Source: Escherichia phage vB_EcoM_DalCa
DNA length: 64,000 bases
Direction: 5' to 3' (one strand)
Sequence record: NC_054908.1
Position numbers and translations under genes: made by a program. A model generated the notes under the pieces. The model did no database searches. It was not told where the DNA came from and saw only the letters and a list, made by a program, of their open reading frames with translations. Positions within the stretch are counted from its first letter, which is position 1; each line of letters opens with the position of its first letter. Shown here one piece after another: positions 8,495-64,000 of this stretch.

Positions 8495-8965
8495 TTAATC
8501 ATGTTTCCACACCCCATCGGTATTTGACCAAAGTCGCTGATTATCTGATCCTCGCCACAGCTTTTTAGTCGGAAGATTTTTCTCATACTTCCCATCAATA
8601 ATAACATCAACATATTTAAGCATTTCTAGTTGTTTAATATCTTCAAACTTATATCCTGTCCACAACCAAATGCTTTTATTGGGATAAAGATTTTTAATAG
8701 TTTGAACCACAGAGTGAATCACGTCTCTGTTATCAGGATAAAGAGGGTCACCTCCGGTTATAGTTAATCCTTCTATATAATCATTATTCAAACATTCAAT
8801 TAATTGTTCTAGTGTTTCACCAGTGAATGGAATACCATTTCTAGCATTCCATGTTGATTTATTATAACACCCTTCGCATTTATGCAAACAACCTGTAACG
8901 AAAAGAACGGTCCTGCAGCCAGGACCATTAACAAAATCGCAAGGATAAAATCTATCATAATTCAT
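8495..8965 (-). CDS. nrdG: Anaerobic ribonucleotide reductase activating protein (radical SAM)
   Basis: 156 aa; Cys cluster CLHKCEGCYN typical of glycyl-radical-activating enzymes; directly downstream of nrdD. Confidence 0.9.
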   Translation of the reverse strand: MNYDRFYPCDFVNGPGCRTVLFVTGCLHKCEGCYNKSTWNARNGIPFTGETLEQLIECLNNDYIEGLTITGGDPLYPDNRDVIHSVVQTIKNLYPNKSIWLWTGYKFEDIKQLEMLKYVDVIIDGKYEKNLPTKKLWRGSDNQRLWSNTDGVWKHD

Positions 8966-10779
8966 TGGTGTTTAACCCTATGCATGATTTCTTTATTTTT
9001 GCCGAGATTAAATCCGCGTTCGTTCGGATTTCCCAAATAACCACATGTTCTTCTTATTGTGTTCATCTTTTTAGGATCAGTTTCTCCACAAATAGAACAA
9101 ACAAATCCGTTTTCAGTAGGAGTCATTTCATGGGTACTTCCACATGTAAAACATTTATCTACTGGCATATTAACACCAAAATAATCTAAATGTTGTGCAG
9201 CATAATCCCATACGGCCTCAAGACCCTTTAAGTTATTTTTCATATCAGGAAGTTCAACATAAGAAATGTGGCCGCCTGTCGCAATGAAATGATATGGTGC
9301 TTCGCGAGAAATCTTTTCAAACGGAGTAATATTTTCTTCTACTGAAACATGGAAACTGTTAGTGTACCAACCTTTATCGGTAACATCCTTTACACTTCCA
9401 TATTTTTCGGTATCAAGTTTACAGAAGCGATAACAAAGGTTTTCAGCAGGAGTAGAATACAAACTAAAAGCAAACCCAGTTCTTTCAGTCCACTGTTTAA
9501 GACGAGCATTCATTTTAGTTAAAATTTCCTGTCCAATATCACGACCGACAAGAATATTCAATTCGTGAATACCAATGTATCCTAGAGACACTGAACTTCT
9601 GCCATTTTTAAATAACTCAATTATATCGTCATCAGGTTTAAGACGAACCCCGAATGCACCTTCTTGGTAAAGAATAGGAGCAACAGTCGCTTTAACTCCT
9701 TTTAAGGAACTAATTCTACACATCAAAGCTTCAAAACATAAATCCATTCGCTCATTGAACAATTCAGTAAATTTCTGTTCATTGAACTGTGTTCCAATAT
9801 AAGAATCTAATGCGATACGAGGAAGATTCAGTGTTACAACACCGAGATTATTACGTCCATCAAGAATTTCATTGCCAGTCGAATCTTTCCATACGCTCAA
9901 GAAACTACGACAACCCATTGGAGAAACAGGAATAGATGAGCCGGTGATAGCTTTATTGTTCTTAGCCGAAATGATGTCAGGATACATTCTTTTGCTTGCG
10001 CACTCTAAAGCAAGCTGCTTAATATCATAGTTCGGGTCGTCTTTATAAAGATTAACACCTTCTTCAACGAACATAACAAGTTTAGGAAAAATAGGAGTTA
10101 TCCCATCACGACCGAGACCTTTAATACGATTTTTCAGAATTGCTTTCTGAATCATTCGTTCAGTCCAGTCAGTTCCCGTACCAAATGTAATTGTTACAAA
10201 AGGAGTCTGTCCGTTTGAACTAAAGAGAGTATTTACTTCATATTCATAAGCTTGGAATGCATCGTATACGTCTTTTTCTGTTTTAGATTGAGCATAATTC
10301 AACGCATCAGCGATTTGCCATTTTTCTGCATCTTCAATATGTTTTGCATAGGTGCGTTTAACATAAGGAGAAAGTACTTCATCTACATTCGCAAAAGTCG
10401 TTCCGCCATATTGATGGGAAGCAACCTGTGCAGTAATTTGTGCCATAATTGCAGTAGCAACACCGATTGATTTAGGAGTTTCAATCTGCGCATTACCGAG
10501 CTTAAATCCGTTCTCAAGCATTCCTTTTAAATCTACTAAACAGCAATTAGTAAATGGAAGAGCAGGGGAATAATCAATATCATGGAAATGAATAATTCCG
10601 CTTTCATGCGCTTTCATAATAAAAGACGGGACCATATTTTTGGCAATGTGCTTAGACACAATACCAGCCATAAGGTCCCGTTGAGTTGGAAAAACACGAG
10701 AATCTTTATTAGCATTCTCGTTTAAAAGGTCTTTATTAGTTTTATGAATCAATCCTTCAATTTCTTTTTCAATTGTCAT
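8962..10779 (-). CDS. nrdD: Anaerobic ribonucleoside-triphosphate reductase (class III), uninterrupted
   Basis: 605 aa continuous ORF; C-terminal glycyl-radical motif RRTCGYLG and Zn-ribbon CFTCGS...CSICG. Confidence 0.95.
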   Translation of the reverse strand: MTIEKEIEGLIHKTNKDLLNENANKDSRVFPTQRDLMAGIVSKHIAKNMVPSFIMKAHESGIIHFHDIDYSPALPFTNCCLVDLKGMLENGFKLGNAQIETPKSIGVATAIMAQITAQVASHQYGGTTFANVDEVLSPYVKRTYAKHIEDAEKWQIADALNYAQSKTEKDVYDAFQAYEYEVNTLFSSNGQTPFVTITFGTGTDWTERMIQKAILKNRIKGLGRDGITPIFPKLVMFVEEGVNLYKDDPNYDIKQLALECASKRMYPDIISAKNNKAITGSSIPVSPMGCRSFLSVWKDSTGNEILDGRNNLGVVTLNLPRIALDSYIGTQFNEQKFTELFNERMDLCFEALMCRISSLKGVKATVAPILYQEGAFGVRLKPDDDIIELFKNGRSSVSLGYIGIHELNILVGRDIGQEILTKMNARLKQWTERTGFAFSLYSTPAENLCYRFCKLDTEKYGSVKDVTDKGWYTNSFHVSVEENITPFEKISREAPYHFIATGGHISYVELPDMKNNLKGLEAVWDYAAQHLDYFGVNMPVDKCFTCGSTHEMTPTENGFVCSICGETDPKKMNTIRRTCGYLGNPNERGFNLGKNKEIMHRVKHQ

Positions 10780-27594: not shown

Positions 27595-28056
27595 TCATTG
27601 AGTTTTAATTACTGCTTTAGAAGCCTTTCCTGGTAAACGACGACTGTTGATAATTGCCATCCTACATTGAAGTGACGGGTCTTTGAACTTCGCGTTAGGT
27701 TTACAAACTGTAAATCCAAGCCAAAGATTTCCATCTGTGATTTCTAAACGTCCAGGACGATATTCAACCCCATCAATAAAATCCTCGTCAATGTCAGGAC
27801 GCGGAGGCATACTCAGGAATTCATTAACTTCTAAAACATGGTCTTTTATTTTATGGAATAATTCAAAAACATATGTCTCATCAATCTCCCGTTGAATTGC
27901 ACGATCAAGAAGATGTTGAGAATATTTTAGATGAAACGATGAGACTCCTGCTGCTTTTGATGCCTCACGAATCTCATTGTTAATTTGACGAAACTCCGAC
28001 TCAAAGTGACGACGAAGCTTATTTCGACGGATAAAAACTTCTGTATTGATAGTCAT
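27595..28056 (-). CDS. regB: Sequence-specific endoribonuclease RegB
   Basis: 153 aa, the length of T4 RegB; position between vs-region and denV; early-type promoter directly upstream. Confidence 0.75.
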   Translation of the reverse strand: MTINTEVFIRRNKLRRHFESEFRQINNEIREASKAAGVSSFHLKYSQHLLDRAIQREIDETYVFELFHKIKDHVLEVNEFLSMPPRPDIDEDFIDGVEYRPGRLEITDGNLWLGFTVCKPNAKFKDPSLQCRMAIINSRRLPGKASKAVIKTQ

Positions 28057-28073
28057 GTTATTCTCCTCTTAAC

Positions 28074-28102
28074 TGATAGAAAAATTATACCACAGTCAAG
28101 AG
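28074..28102 (-). promoter_or_regulatory. T4 early-type promoter upstream of regB
   Basis: Minus -35 GTTTACT, 17-bp spacer, TGG-TATAAT. Confidence 0.55.
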
Positions 28103-28115
28103 GAAAAGTAAACAG

Positions 28116-28436
28116 TTATTCTTTAAATCTAATCAATTTATTCATAGACTTTGAAACTTCTGCACGAACCTCATGTAGATTTTTGAGCTGTTCAAGACGC
28201 TGCTCATAGTAAGCAATTTCATCTTCTTCGAGACAGTCCTGTGAATCTTCTTTAAGATAACGTGCATAGTCCTGGAAAGCGTTACGAACTACTTCCTGGA
28301 AGTCATCAAGACTTTGAATTTTCTTAGGAGCAACAGATACACGACGAGGGGCAGTATAATACTCATAACCAAACCCTGCGCTTAATTGAGCCATTAGTAT
28401 TTTTCCTCTAGTTGGAACACAGCACGACAAGCCCAC
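28116..28436 (-). CDS. Hypothetical protein
   Basis: 106-aa ORF. Confidence 0.45.
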
Positions 28437-28660
28437 ATACTGGCTTCTTTGAGTTTCATTTTAGCAATAGTTAACTGATCGAGGCTTTCGGCGTAATTCT
28501 TCGCGAGTTCATCATCTTCACAGCTATCAAATGCTTCCCAGAATTCATCATATAAAGCATCAAAGATAAGCCCTAAACGAACTTCAGCATCTTTGATAGC
28601 ATTCACTTTACTGATTTTATCGTCAGTATGTGGTTTATAACCTTTAATGTCTTCAATCAT
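28394..28660 (-). CDS. Hypothetical acidic protein
   Basis: 88-aa ORF. Confidence 0.45.
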
Positions 28661-28874
28661 ATTTTACTTCCTCACCTGTTCCCAAATCATATTCAACTAA
28701 ACGAATAGGTTCATGAATGCCATATCCTTGAACAGAAATTTCTGTCGTAGGATAAATTCCATTAATATCACCCATGTTCCATGCTTCGTTAAATTGCTGT
28801 TCGCCTGAATTACTAAACCACTCGGCGAAAGCATTTAGCACATCTTCAGAACCTTCAATAATTATCTTTGCCAT
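28653..28874 (-). CDS. Hypothetical protein
   Basis: 73-aa ORF. Confidence 0.45.
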   Translation of the reverse strand: MAKIIIEGSEDVLNAFAEWFSNSGEQQFNEAWNMGDINGIYPTTEISVQGYGIHEPIRLVEYDLGTGEEVKYD

Positions 28875-29236
28875 TACAAACTCTCGGTGAAGGTACGAGC
28901 GATAACGTCGCGCTGCTGTTCCGGAGTCAGAGAGTTAAAGCGAACTGCATAACCGGATACACGGATGGTCAGCTGCGGATATTTTTCCGGATGCTTAACT
29001 GCATCTTCCAGAGTTTCACGACGCAGAACGTTAACGTTCAGGTGTTGACCACCTTCAATTTTAACTGTAGGCTGTTGCTCAATTTCAATTTCACGGGCAT
29101 GCAAACCATAGAAAATTTCTGGGTCTACAAAAGAGTCCTCTTTAAAGGTTTTAGAGACAATAATTCGTGCTTGAATACCATCTTCAAAATAAATAGTACC
29201 TTTATGTGTGCCTTCAAGAATTTGATATGCTTTCAT
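28874..29236 (-). CDS. Autonomous glycyl-radical cofactor-like protein (GrcA/YfiD-like)
   Basis: 120 aa; C-terminal RVSGYAVRF glycyl-radical fingerprint; T4 is known to encode a YfiD homolog. Confidence 0.7.
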
Positions 29237-29242
29237 ATAACC

Positions 29243-29623
29243 TCAATTAGAAAATAAATTTATCCAAGATTGTTCTTTAATTAAAAATGGCTCAGAATCA
29301 TATGCCATTAAACTCTGTGTGATTAGTCCTTTAAAAGGCCCATCAATAAATTCCATGGTAAAATATGGAATTTTATTCATTAGCCGTGCATTAGGAGCCG
29401 TGCACAAAACTCTGCATCCTTTGAATACGCCTTTTTGTAATTTGTATTGCTTGGGATAAAATTCGCTCAAAATGTTATTTTTTGCCAAAATTTCAAAATG
29501 ATTCACCAATTTATTTTTAATAGTTTTTGGCGAAAAATAAAGATATTCGAAAAGCTGAGTGTCTGTCATCATTGCATTCCGATTACGAAAAACTGTGGAC
29601 GAGTAATACCACCAATGCAACAT
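29243..29623 (-). CDS. Hypothetical protein
   Basis: 126-aa ORF. Confidence 0.45.
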   Translation of the reverse strand: MLHWWYYSSTVFRNRNAMMTDTQLFEYLYFSPKTIKNKLVNHFEILAKNNILSEFYPKQYKLQKGVFKGCRVLCTAPNARLMNKIPYFTMEFIDGPFKGLITQSLMAYDSEPFLIKEQSWINLFSN

Positions 29624-30108
29624 TTAATATTACAGCAGCAGTGTACAGTGTCAATATGGACACTATAAATCTTATCCATATCAGGAGATTTGACAGGCTC
29701 ATCAATTATATACAAAATTCGCGAAAGCGATAAACCTCTGAACTTGCTTCCTTTATTACCAATAAAACTGCGCACAGAATCAGTAAATAAACGAAAACGT
29801 ATATCATCATTAGAATAACGCGAAAATTCCTTTTTAATATTATCTGCGGAAATTTTAGCGTAAGCTGAAGTATTAGAAAGAACAATAACTGTTCCACCGT
29901 CATACAACCAATTAGCGGCAAAATTAGTTACTGCAGTTGATTTACCAGATTGACGCCCACCATCTAGTCGAAGTGTACAATACTGTTTAAGTAAGTCTTC
30001 AAATGGCGGGATATATTCGTTTTTACAAATTTCTTCTACTCTAGCATCAGAATGGTGTGTAAAAGCATTCATCAGGGATAGATAAGGACCAGTTAAAAAT
30101 GTTCTCAT
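29569..30108 (-). CDS. Hypothetical P-loop protein with Cys-rich C-terminus
   Basis: ORF 29569..30156 trimmed to ATG (MRTFLTG); Walker A-like GGRQSGKST; C-terminal HCCCNIKCC; 3' end overlaps next ORF by ~55 nt. Confidence 0.45.
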   Translation of the reverse strand: MRTFLTGPYLSLMNAFTHHSDARVEEICKNEYIPPFEDLLKQYCTLRLDGGRQSGKSTAVTNFAANWLYDGGTVIVLSNTSAYAKISADNIKKEFSRYSNDDIRFRLFTDSVRSFIGNKGSKFRGLSLSRILYIIDEPVKSPDMDKIYSVHIDTVHCCCNIKCCIGGITRPQFFVIGMQ

Positions 30109-30253
30109 TTTGTTCTCTCTAGGTTTGGGCCATTCCATGGCGCATGAATTGTCCATTTCTGTATTTACCCATTACCGCACTTGGGCTCGACCTTATTACA
30201 GGTTGGCGGGAATCCCTCACAGAATCATGAGGTCCAGGTTATTCCCATGTTAT

Positions 30254-30670
30254 TTAAATGTAAATATTTTTGCCGTAATACTTATACCAGTGTGGCTTCA
30301 TTAAAATTTTTTCATCGAGTCGTTGTTGACTCAACTTAATAGCTGATTTGCATGGATTATAATCATTTTTCCATTCTACTGGAATATCGCTGATGTCAGG
30401 AACTTCAGTATCTTTTATACTGAACCCGCGTTTTAAGCATTCCGTTATAATGTCCGATTGACGCTTTCGCAAAAATTCTAACTTATCGTAAAAGAAAGTA
30501 ACATGACCAGAACCTAAAATAAATTTAGAAGATATTTTAAAATCTTTAACGCGCTTACCGTTTGCCACATGCTTACGAACTATACCAAAAACACGCGGCA
30601 ATTCACGGTATTCTGCGATTAAATGTTGATCAGCAAGTTCAGATACTAAAGTCAAATTAATACGAGTCAT
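30254..30670 (-). CDS. denV: Endonuclease V (pyrimidine-dimer DNA glycosylase/AP lyase)
   Basis: 138 aa; recognised T4 endo V sequence [17 protein letters not shown]... Confidence 0.9.
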
Positions 30671-30695
30671 TTTATCCCTCCAAGTAACTGTGAAT

Positions 30696-30724
30696 ATACT
30701 ATCACAATTCTAGGAGAAAGTAAA
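30696..30724 (-). promoter_or_regulatory. T4 early-type promoter upstream of denV
   Basis: Minus -35 GTTTACT, 17-bp spacer, -10 TAGTAT; lies between e and denV. Confidence 0.5.
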
Positions 30725-30729
30725 CAACT

Positions 30730-31260
<531 letters not shown>

Positions 31261-36646: not shown

Positions 36647-36722
36647 TGGTCGAGGCAGTAGGGATCGAACCTACGACCTAGGACTTAGAAGGTCCTTGCT
36701 CTTCCTTCTGAGCTATGCCCCG
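36647..36722 (-). tRNA. tRNA-Arg (anticodon UCU), CCA encoded
   Basis: Manual fold of reverse complement: 7-bp acceptor stem, anticodon arm AGGAC-CUUCUAA-GUCCU, T-arm GTAGG-TTCGATC-CCTAC; 76 nt. Confidence 0.8.
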
Positions 36723-36726
36723 TAAT

Positions 36727-36802
36727 TGGGGTGACCGATGGGAGTCGAACCCATGACTACGAGAATCACAATCTCGAGTTCTACCAACTGAACTACGGCC
36801 AC
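36727..36802 (-). tRNA. tRNA-His (anticodon GUG), CCA encoded
   Basis: Manual fold: D-stem GTTC/GAAC, anticodon arm CGAGA-UUGUGAU-UCUCG, T-arm ATGGG-TTCGACT-CCCAT, discriminator C; not part of the 8-tRNA T4 set. Confidence 0.75.
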
Positions 36803-36916
36803 ATTAATACCTACTCCAACAATCAAGATGTCTTCACACGAAATTAAGAGAAGAGTGATCAGTTCAACCCCTATAATCGCGTCAAGTAGATATTAATGTG
36901 ACAGTTGTCACAAATT

Positions 36917-36991
36917 TGGCGGACGTGATAGGATTCGAACCTATAACCAATCGCTTAACAGGCGATCGCTCTGCCATTGAGCTACACATCC
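36917..36991 (-). tRNA. tRNA-Asn (anticodon GUU), CCA encoded
   Basis: Manual fold: anticodon arm ATCGC-CUGUUAA-GCGAT, T-arm with GGTTCGAATCC; not part of the T4 set. Confidence 0.75.
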
Positions 36992-36995
36992 AAAT

Positions 36996-37082
36996 TGGTG
37001 GGGAGTGGTGGAGTCGAACCACCCGAGTCGCAATGACAATGGATTTACAGTCCACACCGCTACCTCTACGGGATAACTCCCC
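36996..37082 (-). tRNA. tRNA-Tyr (anticodon GUA), class II long variable arm, CCA encoded
   Basis: Manual fold: acceptor GGGGAGT/ACTCCCC, anticodon loop CUGUAAA, long variable arm, T-arm GGTGG-TTCGACT-CCACC; 87 nt; not part of the T4 set. Confidence 0.7.
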
Positions 37083-37091
37083 AAATTAATT

Positions 37092-37166
37092 TGGTGGCCC
37101 TGGGTGGAATTGAACCACCATCTGGCGATTATGAGTCGCTTGCTTGAACCTTCCAGCTACAGGGCC
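37092..37166 (-). tRNA. tRNA with anticodon CAU (Met or lysidine-modified Ile), CCA encoded
   Basis: Manual fold: acceptor GGCCCTG/CAGGGCC, anticodon loop CUCAUAA, T-arm GGTGG-TTCAATT-CCACC; cannot separate Met from Ile(LAU) by eye. Confidence 0.65.
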
Positions 37167-37167
37167 T

Positions 37168-37243
37168 TGGTGCTGATTGACGGAATCGAACCGCCGACCT
37201 TCTCATTACAAGTGAGTTGCTCTACCTACTGAGCTAAATCAGC
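37168..37243 (-). tRNA. tRNA-Thr (anticodon UGU), CCA encoded
   Basis: Manual fold: acceptor GCTGATT/AATCAGC, anticodon loop CUUGUAA, T-loop TTCGATT. Confidence 0.75.
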
Positions 37244-37248
37244 AAAAC

Positions 37249-37338
37249 TGGCGGAGGCGATAGGATTTGAACCTATGAGTCGCCGGAGCGACTGCCGGTT
37301 TTCAAGACCGGTGCATTAAACCACTCTGCCACGCCTCC
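37249..37338 (-). tRNA. tRNA-Ser (anticodon UGA), class II, CCA encoded
   Basis: Manual fold: acceptor GGAGGCG/CGCCTCC, anticodon arm CCGGT-CUUGAAA-ACCGG, long variable arm; 90 nt. Confidence 0.8.
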
Positions 37339-37340
37339 AG

Positions 37341-37414
37341 TCTCCGTGGCAGGATTTGAACCTACGACATTCTACTCCCAAAGCAGACGCTCTACCAAAC
37401 TGAGCTACACGGAG
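37341..37414 (-). tRNA. tRNA-Pro (anticodon UGG), CCA not encoded
   Basis: Manual fold: acceptor CTCCGTG/CACGGAG, anticodon loop UUUGGGA, T-loop TTCAAAT; 3' end abuts tRNA-Ser 5' end, consistent with the T4-type Pro-Ser dimeric precursor. Confidence 0.75.
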
Positions 37415-37424
37415 TAAATTAAAT

Positions 37425-37498
<74 letters not shown>

Positions 37499-37503
37499 AA
37501 ATT

Positions 37504-37590
37504 TGGTGCGAGAAGTGGGACTCGAACCCACAAGGAAATCATTCCGCAGCATTTTAAGTGCTGTGCCTTTACCAATTTGGCCATTCTCGC
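37504..37590 (-). tRNA. tRNA-Leu (anticodon UAA), class II, CCA encoded
   Basis: Manual fold: acceptor GCGAGAA/TTCTCGC, anticodon arm CAGCA-CUUAAAA-UGCUG, long variable arm; 87 nt. Confidence 0.8.
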
Positions 37591-37591
37591 G

Positions 37592-37664
37592 CTGGGAATA
37601 AAGGACTCGAACCTTTGCATCCTGGAATCAAAATCCAGTGCCTTACCAACTTGGCTAATTCCCA
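37592..37664 (-). tRNA. tRNA-Gln (anticodon UUG), CCA not encoded
   Basis: Manual fold: acceptor TGGGAAT/ATTCCCA (U1-A72), anticodon arm CTGGA-UUUUGAU-TCCAG, T-arm AAAGG-TTCGAGT-CCTTT; 3' end abuts tRNA-Leu as in the T4 Gln-Leu dimeric precursor. Confidence 0.75.
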
Positions 37665-63362: not shown

Positions 63363-64000
63363 ATGACTTTATTATCTCCGGGCATTGAGCTCAAAGAAAC
63401 TACGGTTCAAAGCACCGTGGTTAATAACTCTACTGGTACAGCAGCTTTGGCCGGTAAATTCCAGTGGGGTCCTGCTTTTCAGATTAAACAGGTTACAAAC
63501 GAAGTAGATTTAGTTAATACTTTTGGTCAACCAACCGCTGAAACTGCTGACTATTTTATGTCTGCGATGAATTTCTTGCAGTACGGAAATGACTTACGAG
63601 TAGTTCGTGCTGTTGATAGAGATACCGCTAAAAACTCATCGCCAATTGCTGGTAATATTGAATACACAATTTCTACCCCAGGTAGTAACTATGCGGTTGG
63701 AGATAAAATCACGGTCAAATATGTTTCAGATGATATTGAAACTGAAGGTAAAATTACTGAAGTAGACGCAGATGGAAAAATTAAGAAAATTAATATTCCT
63801 ACTGCAAAAATTATCGCTAAAGCAAAAGAAGTCGGTGAATACCCGGAATTAGGTTCTAACTGGACTGCGGAAATTTCTTCATCTTCCTCTGGTTTAGCTG
63901 CAGTAATAACTCTTGGAAAAATTATTACTGATTCTGGTATTTTATTAGCTGAAATTGAAAATGCTGAAGCTGCTATGACAGCGGTTGACTTTCAAGCAAA
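63363..64000 (+). CDS. 18: Tail sheath protein gp18, N-terminal part (3' end beyond window)
   Basis: ATG at 63363 preceded by AGAGGA and a TATAAATA late motif; reads MTLLSPGIELKETTVQSTVVNNSTGT...; open to window end. Confidence 0.9.
   Translation, partial: MTLLSPGIELKETTVQSTVVNNSTGTAALAGKFQWGPAFQIKQVTNEVDLVNTFGQPTAETADYFMSAMNFLQYGNDLRVVRAVDRDTAKNSSPIAGNIEYTISTPGSNYAVGDKITVKYVSDDIETEGKITEVDADGKIKKINIPTAKIIAKAKEVGEYPELGSNWTAEISSSSSGLAAVITLGKIITDSGILLAEIENAEAAMTAVDFQA

Follow-up and report, generated by a model that had tools for sequence, protein, structure and literature searches.

What does a lytic phage gain from a gene for a glycyl-radical protein of bacterial type, and where did it obtain it? 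The question is raised by a small gene in the 64,000-nt stretch of Escherichia phage vB_EcoM_DalCa analyzed here (record NC_054908.1; henceforth, the window). An initial annotation had placed at 28874–29236 a gene for an autonomous glycyl-radical cofactor resembling GrcA/YfiD, without naming a strand. An open reading frame with exactly these limits is present on the minus strand; in the ORF list it comprises 120 codons, from an ATG at 29236–29234 to a TAA at 28876–28874. We designate it vs.6, as in phage T4. The gene and its immediate surroundings are the following:

28874..29236, minus strand: vs.6 / Y06I-type gene, GrcA-like, 120 aa (ORF list, Pfam, PHROG, T4 identity)
29241..29244, minus strand: Shine–Dalgarno sequence GAGG, 4 nt 5' of the vs.6 ATG (sequence reading)
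28653..28874, minus strand: vs.5 homologue, 73 aa, directly downstream of vs.6 (PHROG 1986)
29243..29623, minus strand: vs.7 homologue, directly upstream of vs.6 (PHROG 2049)

The neighbors of vs.6 match PHROGs 1986, 2049 and 1488, and the gene order in the window (regB, vs.3, vs.4, vs.5, vs.6, vs.7, vs.8, denV) is identical to that of T4 (NC_000866). Within this series, vs.8–vs.7–vs.6–vs.5 form a tightly packed block in which the signals of adjacent genes overlap: the vs.7 stop TGA (29243–29245) overlaps the Shine–Dalgarno sequence of vs.6, and the vs.6 stop shares one base with the vs.5 start (TAATG). The mechanical ORF of vs.7 measures 126 aa; because the PHROG 2049 profile begins only at residue 18, the true start of vs.7 is probably an ATG near 29572, overlapping the vs.8 stop as in T4. 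When 28000–30800 was scanned for other signals, sigma-70-like promoter sites (11 found, 10.3 expected) and terminator-like sites (2 found, 1.8 expected) occurred at chance frequency, and a regular-expression search for MotA-box-like middle promoters on the minus strand of 28600–30800 returned none. An antisense ORF at 28868–29257 (plus strand, TTG start, 129 aa) was rejected as an unsupported shadow of vs.6.

The vs.8 homologue (29569–30156) showed a weak P-loop/AAA match (Pfam AAA_14, E 0.0024, under the cutoff) and matched part of a terminase large-subunit PHROG weakly (E 2.4e-6). Possibly, an uncharacterized NTPase is thus encoded next to vs.6–vs.7.

The assignment of vs.6 had hinged on a C-terminal motif read as a glycyl-radical fingerprint, and this reading was borne out by both profile and structure alignments.

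28937..28963, minus strand: glycyl-radical fingerprint RVSGYAVRF, residues 92–100 (ORF list, structure alignments)

Gly_radical (PF01228) is the sole Pfam domain in the 120-aa product, matched over residues 60–101 with E 2.5e-18 and 67 bits against a cutoff of 22.2. Residues 22–120 align with residues 28–127 of E. coli GrcA (PDB 6OWR, E 9e-42), and residues 58–120 with residues 697–759 of pyruvate formate-lyase, PFL (1CM5 and 1H16, E 5e-26), the match to the C-terminal radical domain of PflB and TdcE including RVSGYAVRF. Since residues 58–120 align in this way, Gly95 (codon GGT, 28952–28954) corresponds to the PFL radical site Gly734, and it also falls on Gly102 of GrcA, so that the glycine stands in the full conserved context of the radical domain. 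The initial annotation would have been refuted by a Gly lying elsewhere, which is not what the alignments show. The C-terminal 60 residues are identical to those of E. coli GrcA, while identity across the whole 100-residue alignment is 74%.

Which member of the glycyl-radical group this is can be read from the family profiles. The best NCBIfam family was TIGR04365 (spare_glycyl, autonomous glycyl radical cofactor GrcA; E 1.2e-45). Its equivalog cutoff was missed (154.9 vs 170 bits) and the profile was matched from position 25, a shortfall due to divergence in the N-terminal half (first ~20 residues). PHROG 1209 was matched at full length (residues 1–120 on profile positions 1–121, E 5.7e-63). 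Of TIGR01255 (Pyruvate formate-lyase / TdcE), only profile positions 680–744 of 744 were matched, at 89 bits against a cutoff of 994. Because nothing beyond these last ~65 positions is present, the vs.6 product is not a formate-lyase: PflB has ~760 residues with the catalytic Cys418/Cys419, and vs.6 lacks that remainder of the enzyme. The product is best called a member of the T4 vs.6/Y06I family that works like GrcA, and the gene is better named a phage GrcA-like paralogue than grcA. A single-sequence AlphaFold2 model was unusable (mean pLDDT 34.8, pTM 0.29).

The T4 homologue that the initial annotation mentioned does exist. It is vs.6 (Y06I, NP_049730), located at 63557–63919 of NC_000866 between vs.5 and vs.7 and annotated there as "autonomous glycyl radical cofactor GrcA". 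Upon alignment, the two proteins agree in length (120 aa) and at 118 of 120 residues, and the genes have the same neighbors and both possess the host-identical 3' tract described below; T4 differs in having P in place of Q54 and H in place of R73, the latter being R in E. coli GrcA as well. Hence the observation behind the annotation is confirmed and its interpretation supported, the gene itself being already known: what the window offers is the re-identification of a characterized T4 gene.

Like the phage protein, E. coli GrcA (YfiD) is a small glycyl-radical domain that stands alone; the two proteins have their C-terminal 60 aa in common and their genes 169 nt, and homology extends over phage residues 22–120. 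The phage protein is 7 aa shorter, however, and its N-terminal 59 aa are far more diverged than the C-terminal 60. The genomic settings differ as well, since E. coli grcA sits between ung and eamB whereas the phage gene lies between vs.7 and vs.5 in a lytic-phage block of early type; the ung–grcA context marks the bacterial orthologue, not the function.

Genes of this kind are widespread. At the DNA level, Escherichia phages Pinarejo and REP3 have the same gene (100% identity), and that of T2 is 99.2% identical. We found 1505 matching phage records, T5-like phages included, 861 of which cover at least 80% of the gene, and further copies come from IMG/VR, some of Karam-, Krisch-, Slopek- and Pseudoteven-type and others on 345–357-kb phage contigs. 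Conservation of vs.6 in 6/6 T4-like genomes was reported by Nolan et al. 2006 (PMC1524935). In the 5' half of the gene, the comparison of the window with RB69 gave a dN/dS of ~0.1 (0.043/0.42), implying that vs.6 is under purifying selection.

The names attached to these copies vary. PHROG 1209 is labeled "unknown function" although the T4 protein has been characterized biochemically, and in GenBank phage records the gene appears as hypothetical or under the names "pyruvate formate-lyase", "2-ketobutyrate formate-lyase" and "acetyltransferase-related". The formate-lyase labels on phage copies are over-annotations, and the labels of PHROG 1209 and of many GenBank records constitute an annotation problem that deserves correction.

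When vs.6 was compared with E. coli grcA at the nucleotide level, the gene resolved into three parts:

29059..29236, minus strand: phage-type 5' half, codons 1–59, GC 0.33, GC3 0.20 (alignment, composition)
28890..29058, minus strand: host-identical tract, 169 nt, gene nt 179–347, codons 60–116 (alignment, megablast, GC profile)
28874..28889, minus strand: phage-type 3' end, last 16 nt of the gene (alignment)

Over its 169 consecutive nucleotides, the tract shows 100% identity to the chromosomal grcA of E. coli. It encodes the whole glycyl-radical domain; within the codon-aligned core, the exact run measures 167 nt. The final 16 nt of the gene contain five differences from E. coli grcA, all synonymous, and the bases at gene nt 348 and 354 are the same in Klebsiella Jiaodavirus phages. 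Composition follows the same division, with a GC3 of 0.20 in the 5' half vs 0.47 in the 3' half, and a GC of ~0.5 in the tract against 0.35 in the window. The 3' 185 nt match grcA at 97.3% in 5426/5426 complete E. coli genomes (megablast match 28870–29058), and the 5' half found no match in the same 5426 genomes. Upon megablast of all 64 kb, the tract was the only E. coli chromosomal match; the other E. coli match in the window was a tRNA-like stretch, to plasmid records.

The 5' half retains ~50% DNA identity to E. coli grcA, and the N-terminal half of GrcA is still recognizable in it, as in a 13-residue phage segment set against EARCIVAKAGFAED. Because the upstream protein is still homologous to GrcA, the gene is not a fusion of host DNA to an unrelated sequence but a diverged phage homologue in which host DNA has taken the place of the 3' part. 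Thus, a lytic phage that degrades host DNA still holds a 169-nt perfect host segment, in frame within its own diverged homologue. No description of the host-identical tract was found in the literature searched, whose reach did not extend to Wagner et al. 2001 and Miller et al. 2003.

From whom, in which direction and how long ago was this segment acquired? Among the grcA genes of 81 host species (that of K. pneumoniae not among them), that of E. coli matches the phage core best (178/183 nt), followed by that of a sister Escherichia species (176/183) and those of Citrobacter (165–167/183). This ranking of the hosts identifies E. coli itself as the donor and the transfer as recent. For comparison, E. 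coli and Salmonella are separated by 29/183 nt in the corresponding stretch of grcA (dS ~1.0), and E. coli and a sister Escherichia species by 2/183. Between E. coli and Salmonella, dS in the two halves of grcA is 0.81 and 1.02; such similar values fit vertical descent of the gene in the host, so the direction was from host to phage. The 3' half of E. coli grcA showed no anomalous position relative to its 5' half, as might be expected had E. coli received it from a phage. In the phages the two halves behave very differently: the dS of the window vs RB69 falls from 0.42 in the 5' half to 0.024 in the tract, where one synonymous difference was observed against 13.5 expected (P ~2e-5).

We extended the comparison to 16 Tequatrovirus/Mosigvirus copies, among them those of T4, T2, RB69 and the window as well as copies from phages that had been isolated on Shigella or Yersinia. 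Within the tract, each copy carries 0–4 scattered differences from the E. coli allele, the window and one other copy (L096) having none. The tract shows no genus-specific substitution in the 16 copies, whereas the flanks do have genus-specific differences. On this sequence evidence, our results point to a recent and probably repeated gene conversion from host to phage in Tequatrovirus and Mosigvirus. The pattern fits a conversion that took place after the two genera split, either repeatedly from the host or through one capture followed by spread from phage to phage.

The boundaries of the tract bear on the choice between these two courses. The left boundary is the same in 16/16 coliphage copies, and the right boundary shows at least five patterns. 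The right limit of host identity lies at nt 356 in T4, 353 in RB69, 350 in T2 and 347 in the window, so that the T4 tract extends 9 nt further than that of the window. The bases past the right limit partly match the Klebsiella Jiaodavirus copies, which suggests that they may represent older phage states. It is conceivable, and we advance it tentatively, that the radical-domain half is kept identical to the current host grcA by recurrent conversion during infection, the Klebsiella-phage residues being traces of older episodes. If so, vs.6 would be a "host-tracking" auxiliary gene: the host chromosome, and not ordinary selection, would keep renewing its interface with PflA and PflB. Alternatively, E. 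coli grcA DNA could have been captured just once, in recent times, and have spread across Tequatrovirus and Mosigvirus by phage–phage recombination, which would require neither recurrent conversion nor selection for a match to the host; we regard this course as possible, if somewhat doubtful. T-even phages recombine avidly, the identical tract would itself be a recombination hot-spot between the genera, and all the coliphage copies have the left boundary in common. However, the multiplicity of right boundaries, in which old phage allele states, as found in Jiaodavirus, have been kept to varying extents, tells against a single capture, though not decisively; so does the fact that the copies differ from each other solely where one or another departs, at scattered positions, from the E. 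coli allele.

Irrespective of the number of events, the tract offers, in the T-even model, a clean and datable case of host DNA recombining into the interior of a phage gene, of modest value but testable with marked host alleles. There is a possible parallel in cyanophage psbA, a phage metabolic gene that reportedly swaps segments with the host copy, giving rise to mosaic genes; gene, host and phage group are all different, and the likeness is an analogy only. In one coliphage, Escherichia phage vB_VIPECOOM01 (L171), a 6-nt GAAATT repeat is expanded just upstream of the tract (equivalent to ~29060–29095), adding one Glu-Ile and giving a 122-aa variant.

The PHROG 1209 copies of Jiaodavirus, Slopekvirus, Karamvirus, Krischvirus, Pseudotevenvirus, Tequintavirus and jumbo phages have the same architecture and the same invariant core, but differ in lacking the recent E. 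coli tract, which was seen in no phage lineage examined besides Tequatrovirus/Mosigvirus. Set against the 81 host grcA genes, the cores of these other lineages reach only 75–88% DNA identity, with exact runs of at most 38 nt. Within this set of host genes, to which K. pneumoniae grcA did not belong, the figures lend no support to host tracking in phages of Klebsiella, Enterobacter and Citrobacter (best core identity 88%, runs of at most 38 nt). The radical domain of Jiaodavirus and Slopekvirus copies (L084, L178, L089) contains ETLLDAVEH, a sequence of Klebsiella/Enterobacter type, and in the one copy measured, that of Jiaodavirus 5N (L084), GC3 is 0.62 in the 3' half vs 0.20 in the 5' half, although its core, too, has at most 88% DNA identity to any host core in the set. 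Klebsiella-type residues together with a GC-rich 3' half may reflect an older host conversion. Some IMG/VR contigs classed as viral carry a Yersinia-like, host-type grcA (L119) or full or partial pflB (L160–L170); rather than phage genes, they probably represent prophage flanks or host DNA that was binned as viral.

As for the function, we consider it very probable that vs.6 is the orthologue of T4 vs.6/Y06I and acts as a PFL spare part of the GrcA/YfiD type, with a radical segment recently overwritten by host grcA. That such proteins rescue damaged PFL had been proposed for the window gene at the outset, and the proposal agrees with published biochemistry: Andorfer et al. 2021 (PMC8683613), who cite Wagner et al. 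2001, name YfiD and T4 Y06I as the sole two experimentally validated spare parts, both being converted to the radical form by PFL-AE and both forming a complex with O2-cleaved PFL whose activity is thereby restored in vitro. Transfer of the radical from G102 of GrcA to C419 of PflB has been described (PMC12338860). As the vs.6 protein of the window is nearly identical to Y06I and, in the radical domain, fully identical to GrcA, we infer that the same biochemistry applies to it.

A plausible sequence of events would then be as follows. The 14-kDa vs.6 protein would be made after infection from the vs.8–vs.7–vs.6–vs.5 block, and host PflA, a radical SAM enzyme, would abstract a hydrogen from its Gly95. 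Where PflB had been cleaved by O2 at Gly734, the radical-bearing vs.6 protein would dock in the place of the lost C-terminal radical domain and pass the radical to Cys419, allowing pyruvate to be converted again to acetyl-CoA and formate. T4-type phages shut off host gene expression, which is presumably why the phage brings a spare part of its own. The benefit might be twofold: fermentative ATP and acetyl-CoA would be sustained under microaerobic conditions, and a supply of formate could be maintained as reductant for the phage NrdD. Formate is known to serve as the reductant of class III ribonucleotide reductase (PMC4493059).

In evolutionary terms, vs.6 is an old full-length phage homologue of grcA whose radical-domain segment, in the Tequatrovirus and Mosigvirus phages that infect E. 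coli, was recently overwritten by host grcA through homologous or homeologous recombination, probably on more than one occasion. The vs.6 product is therefore identical to the host protein in just the part that, by analogy with GrcA, PflA and PflB have to recognize.

The annotation had further grouped vs.6 with nrdD and nrdG in a glycyl-radical "toolkit" for anaerobic growth. Both genes are indeed present in the window, nrdD encoding its other glycyl-radical enzyme:

8962..10779, minus strand: nrdD, class III ribonucleotide reductase, 605 aa (Pfam NRDD E 1.2e-171, Gly_radical E 1.3e-25)
8495..8965, minus strand: nrdG, radical-SAM activase of NrdD, 156 aa (Fer4_12 E 1.4e-48, Radical_SAM, CX3CX2C motif)

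The co-occurrence of the three genes therefore stands, but it is co-occurrence that ties vs.6 to nrdD/nrdG, with no similarity of its product to NrdD. Like T4, this phage possesses both a PFL spare part and NrdD/NrdG, a combination that fits replication in a gut where oxygen fluctuates.

Could vs.6 instead be a spare glycyl-radical domain for the phage's own O2-cleaved NrdD, activated by NrdG and not destined for PFL? The presence of nrdD and nrdG in the same window invites the idea; moreover, Nolan et al. 2006 (PMC1524935) suggested, on the grounds of the Pfam domain in common, a role in phage nucleotide metabolism, and spare parts for other glycyl-radical enzymes have been speculated upon (PMC8683613). 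Nevertheless, BLASTP between vs.6 and the window NrdD gave no significant similarity: the best alignment had E 2.6 and fell outside the radical loop. Over 60 aa, the radical domain agrees 100% with that of host GrcA, and it closely matches PflB 697–759; the gene lies 18 kb from nrdDG, and the Y06I biochemistry is reported with PFL and PFL-AE (PMC8683613). We consequently rejected the idea on sequence grounds and deem it very unlikely; given a PFL-type domain that bears no similarity to NrdD, the link between vs.6 and NrdD would be at most metabolic, running from PFL to formate.

Equally far-fetched, in our estimate, is a role as decoy or modulator, in which a mimic of GrcA/PflB would titrate PflA or occupy PFL so as to redirect the flux of pyruvate or dampen a host stress response. 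Perfect mimicry of the host radical domain, while the N-terminal half diverges, would suit a competitor; yet that half is still GrcA-homologous along its length and under purifying selection, and the biochemistry cited describes PFL activity restored, not inhibited (PMC8683613). One might also regard vs.6 as a functionless remnant of acquired host DNA, half of the gene being just that and the PHROGs family being labeled as of unknown function. We give this view practically no credence: the reading frame is intact and has its own Shine–Dalgarno sequence, the gene is kept across T4-like, T5-like and jumbo phages, dN/dS in the non-host half is ~0.1, and the T4 protein is reported to be biochemically active (PMC8683613). 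Conservation and the signature of selection have effectively refuted it already. The PFL spare part thus remains our reading of vs.6.

A few other features of the window were recorded. The nrdD gene is one uninterrupted 605-aa ORF, and no group I intron was detected by Rfam anywhere in the window; T4 nrdD (sunY) carries an intron. Past the vs block, denV (30254–30670) is followed after a gap of 59 nt by the lysozyme gene e (30730–31224), and the internal-protein genes ipII and ipIII, which lie between denV and e in T4, are absent from the window. The Rfam scan of the window returned tRNAs only. Eleven tRNA genes occupy 36647–37664 on the minus strand (Arg, His, Asn, Tyr, Met(cat), Thr, Ser, Pro, Gly, Leu, Gln), exceeding the eight of T4. 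E. coli plasmid records contain a tRNA-Tyr with 89.5% identity to the tRNA-Tyr stretch of the window, and 219 of the matching places lie on plasmids.
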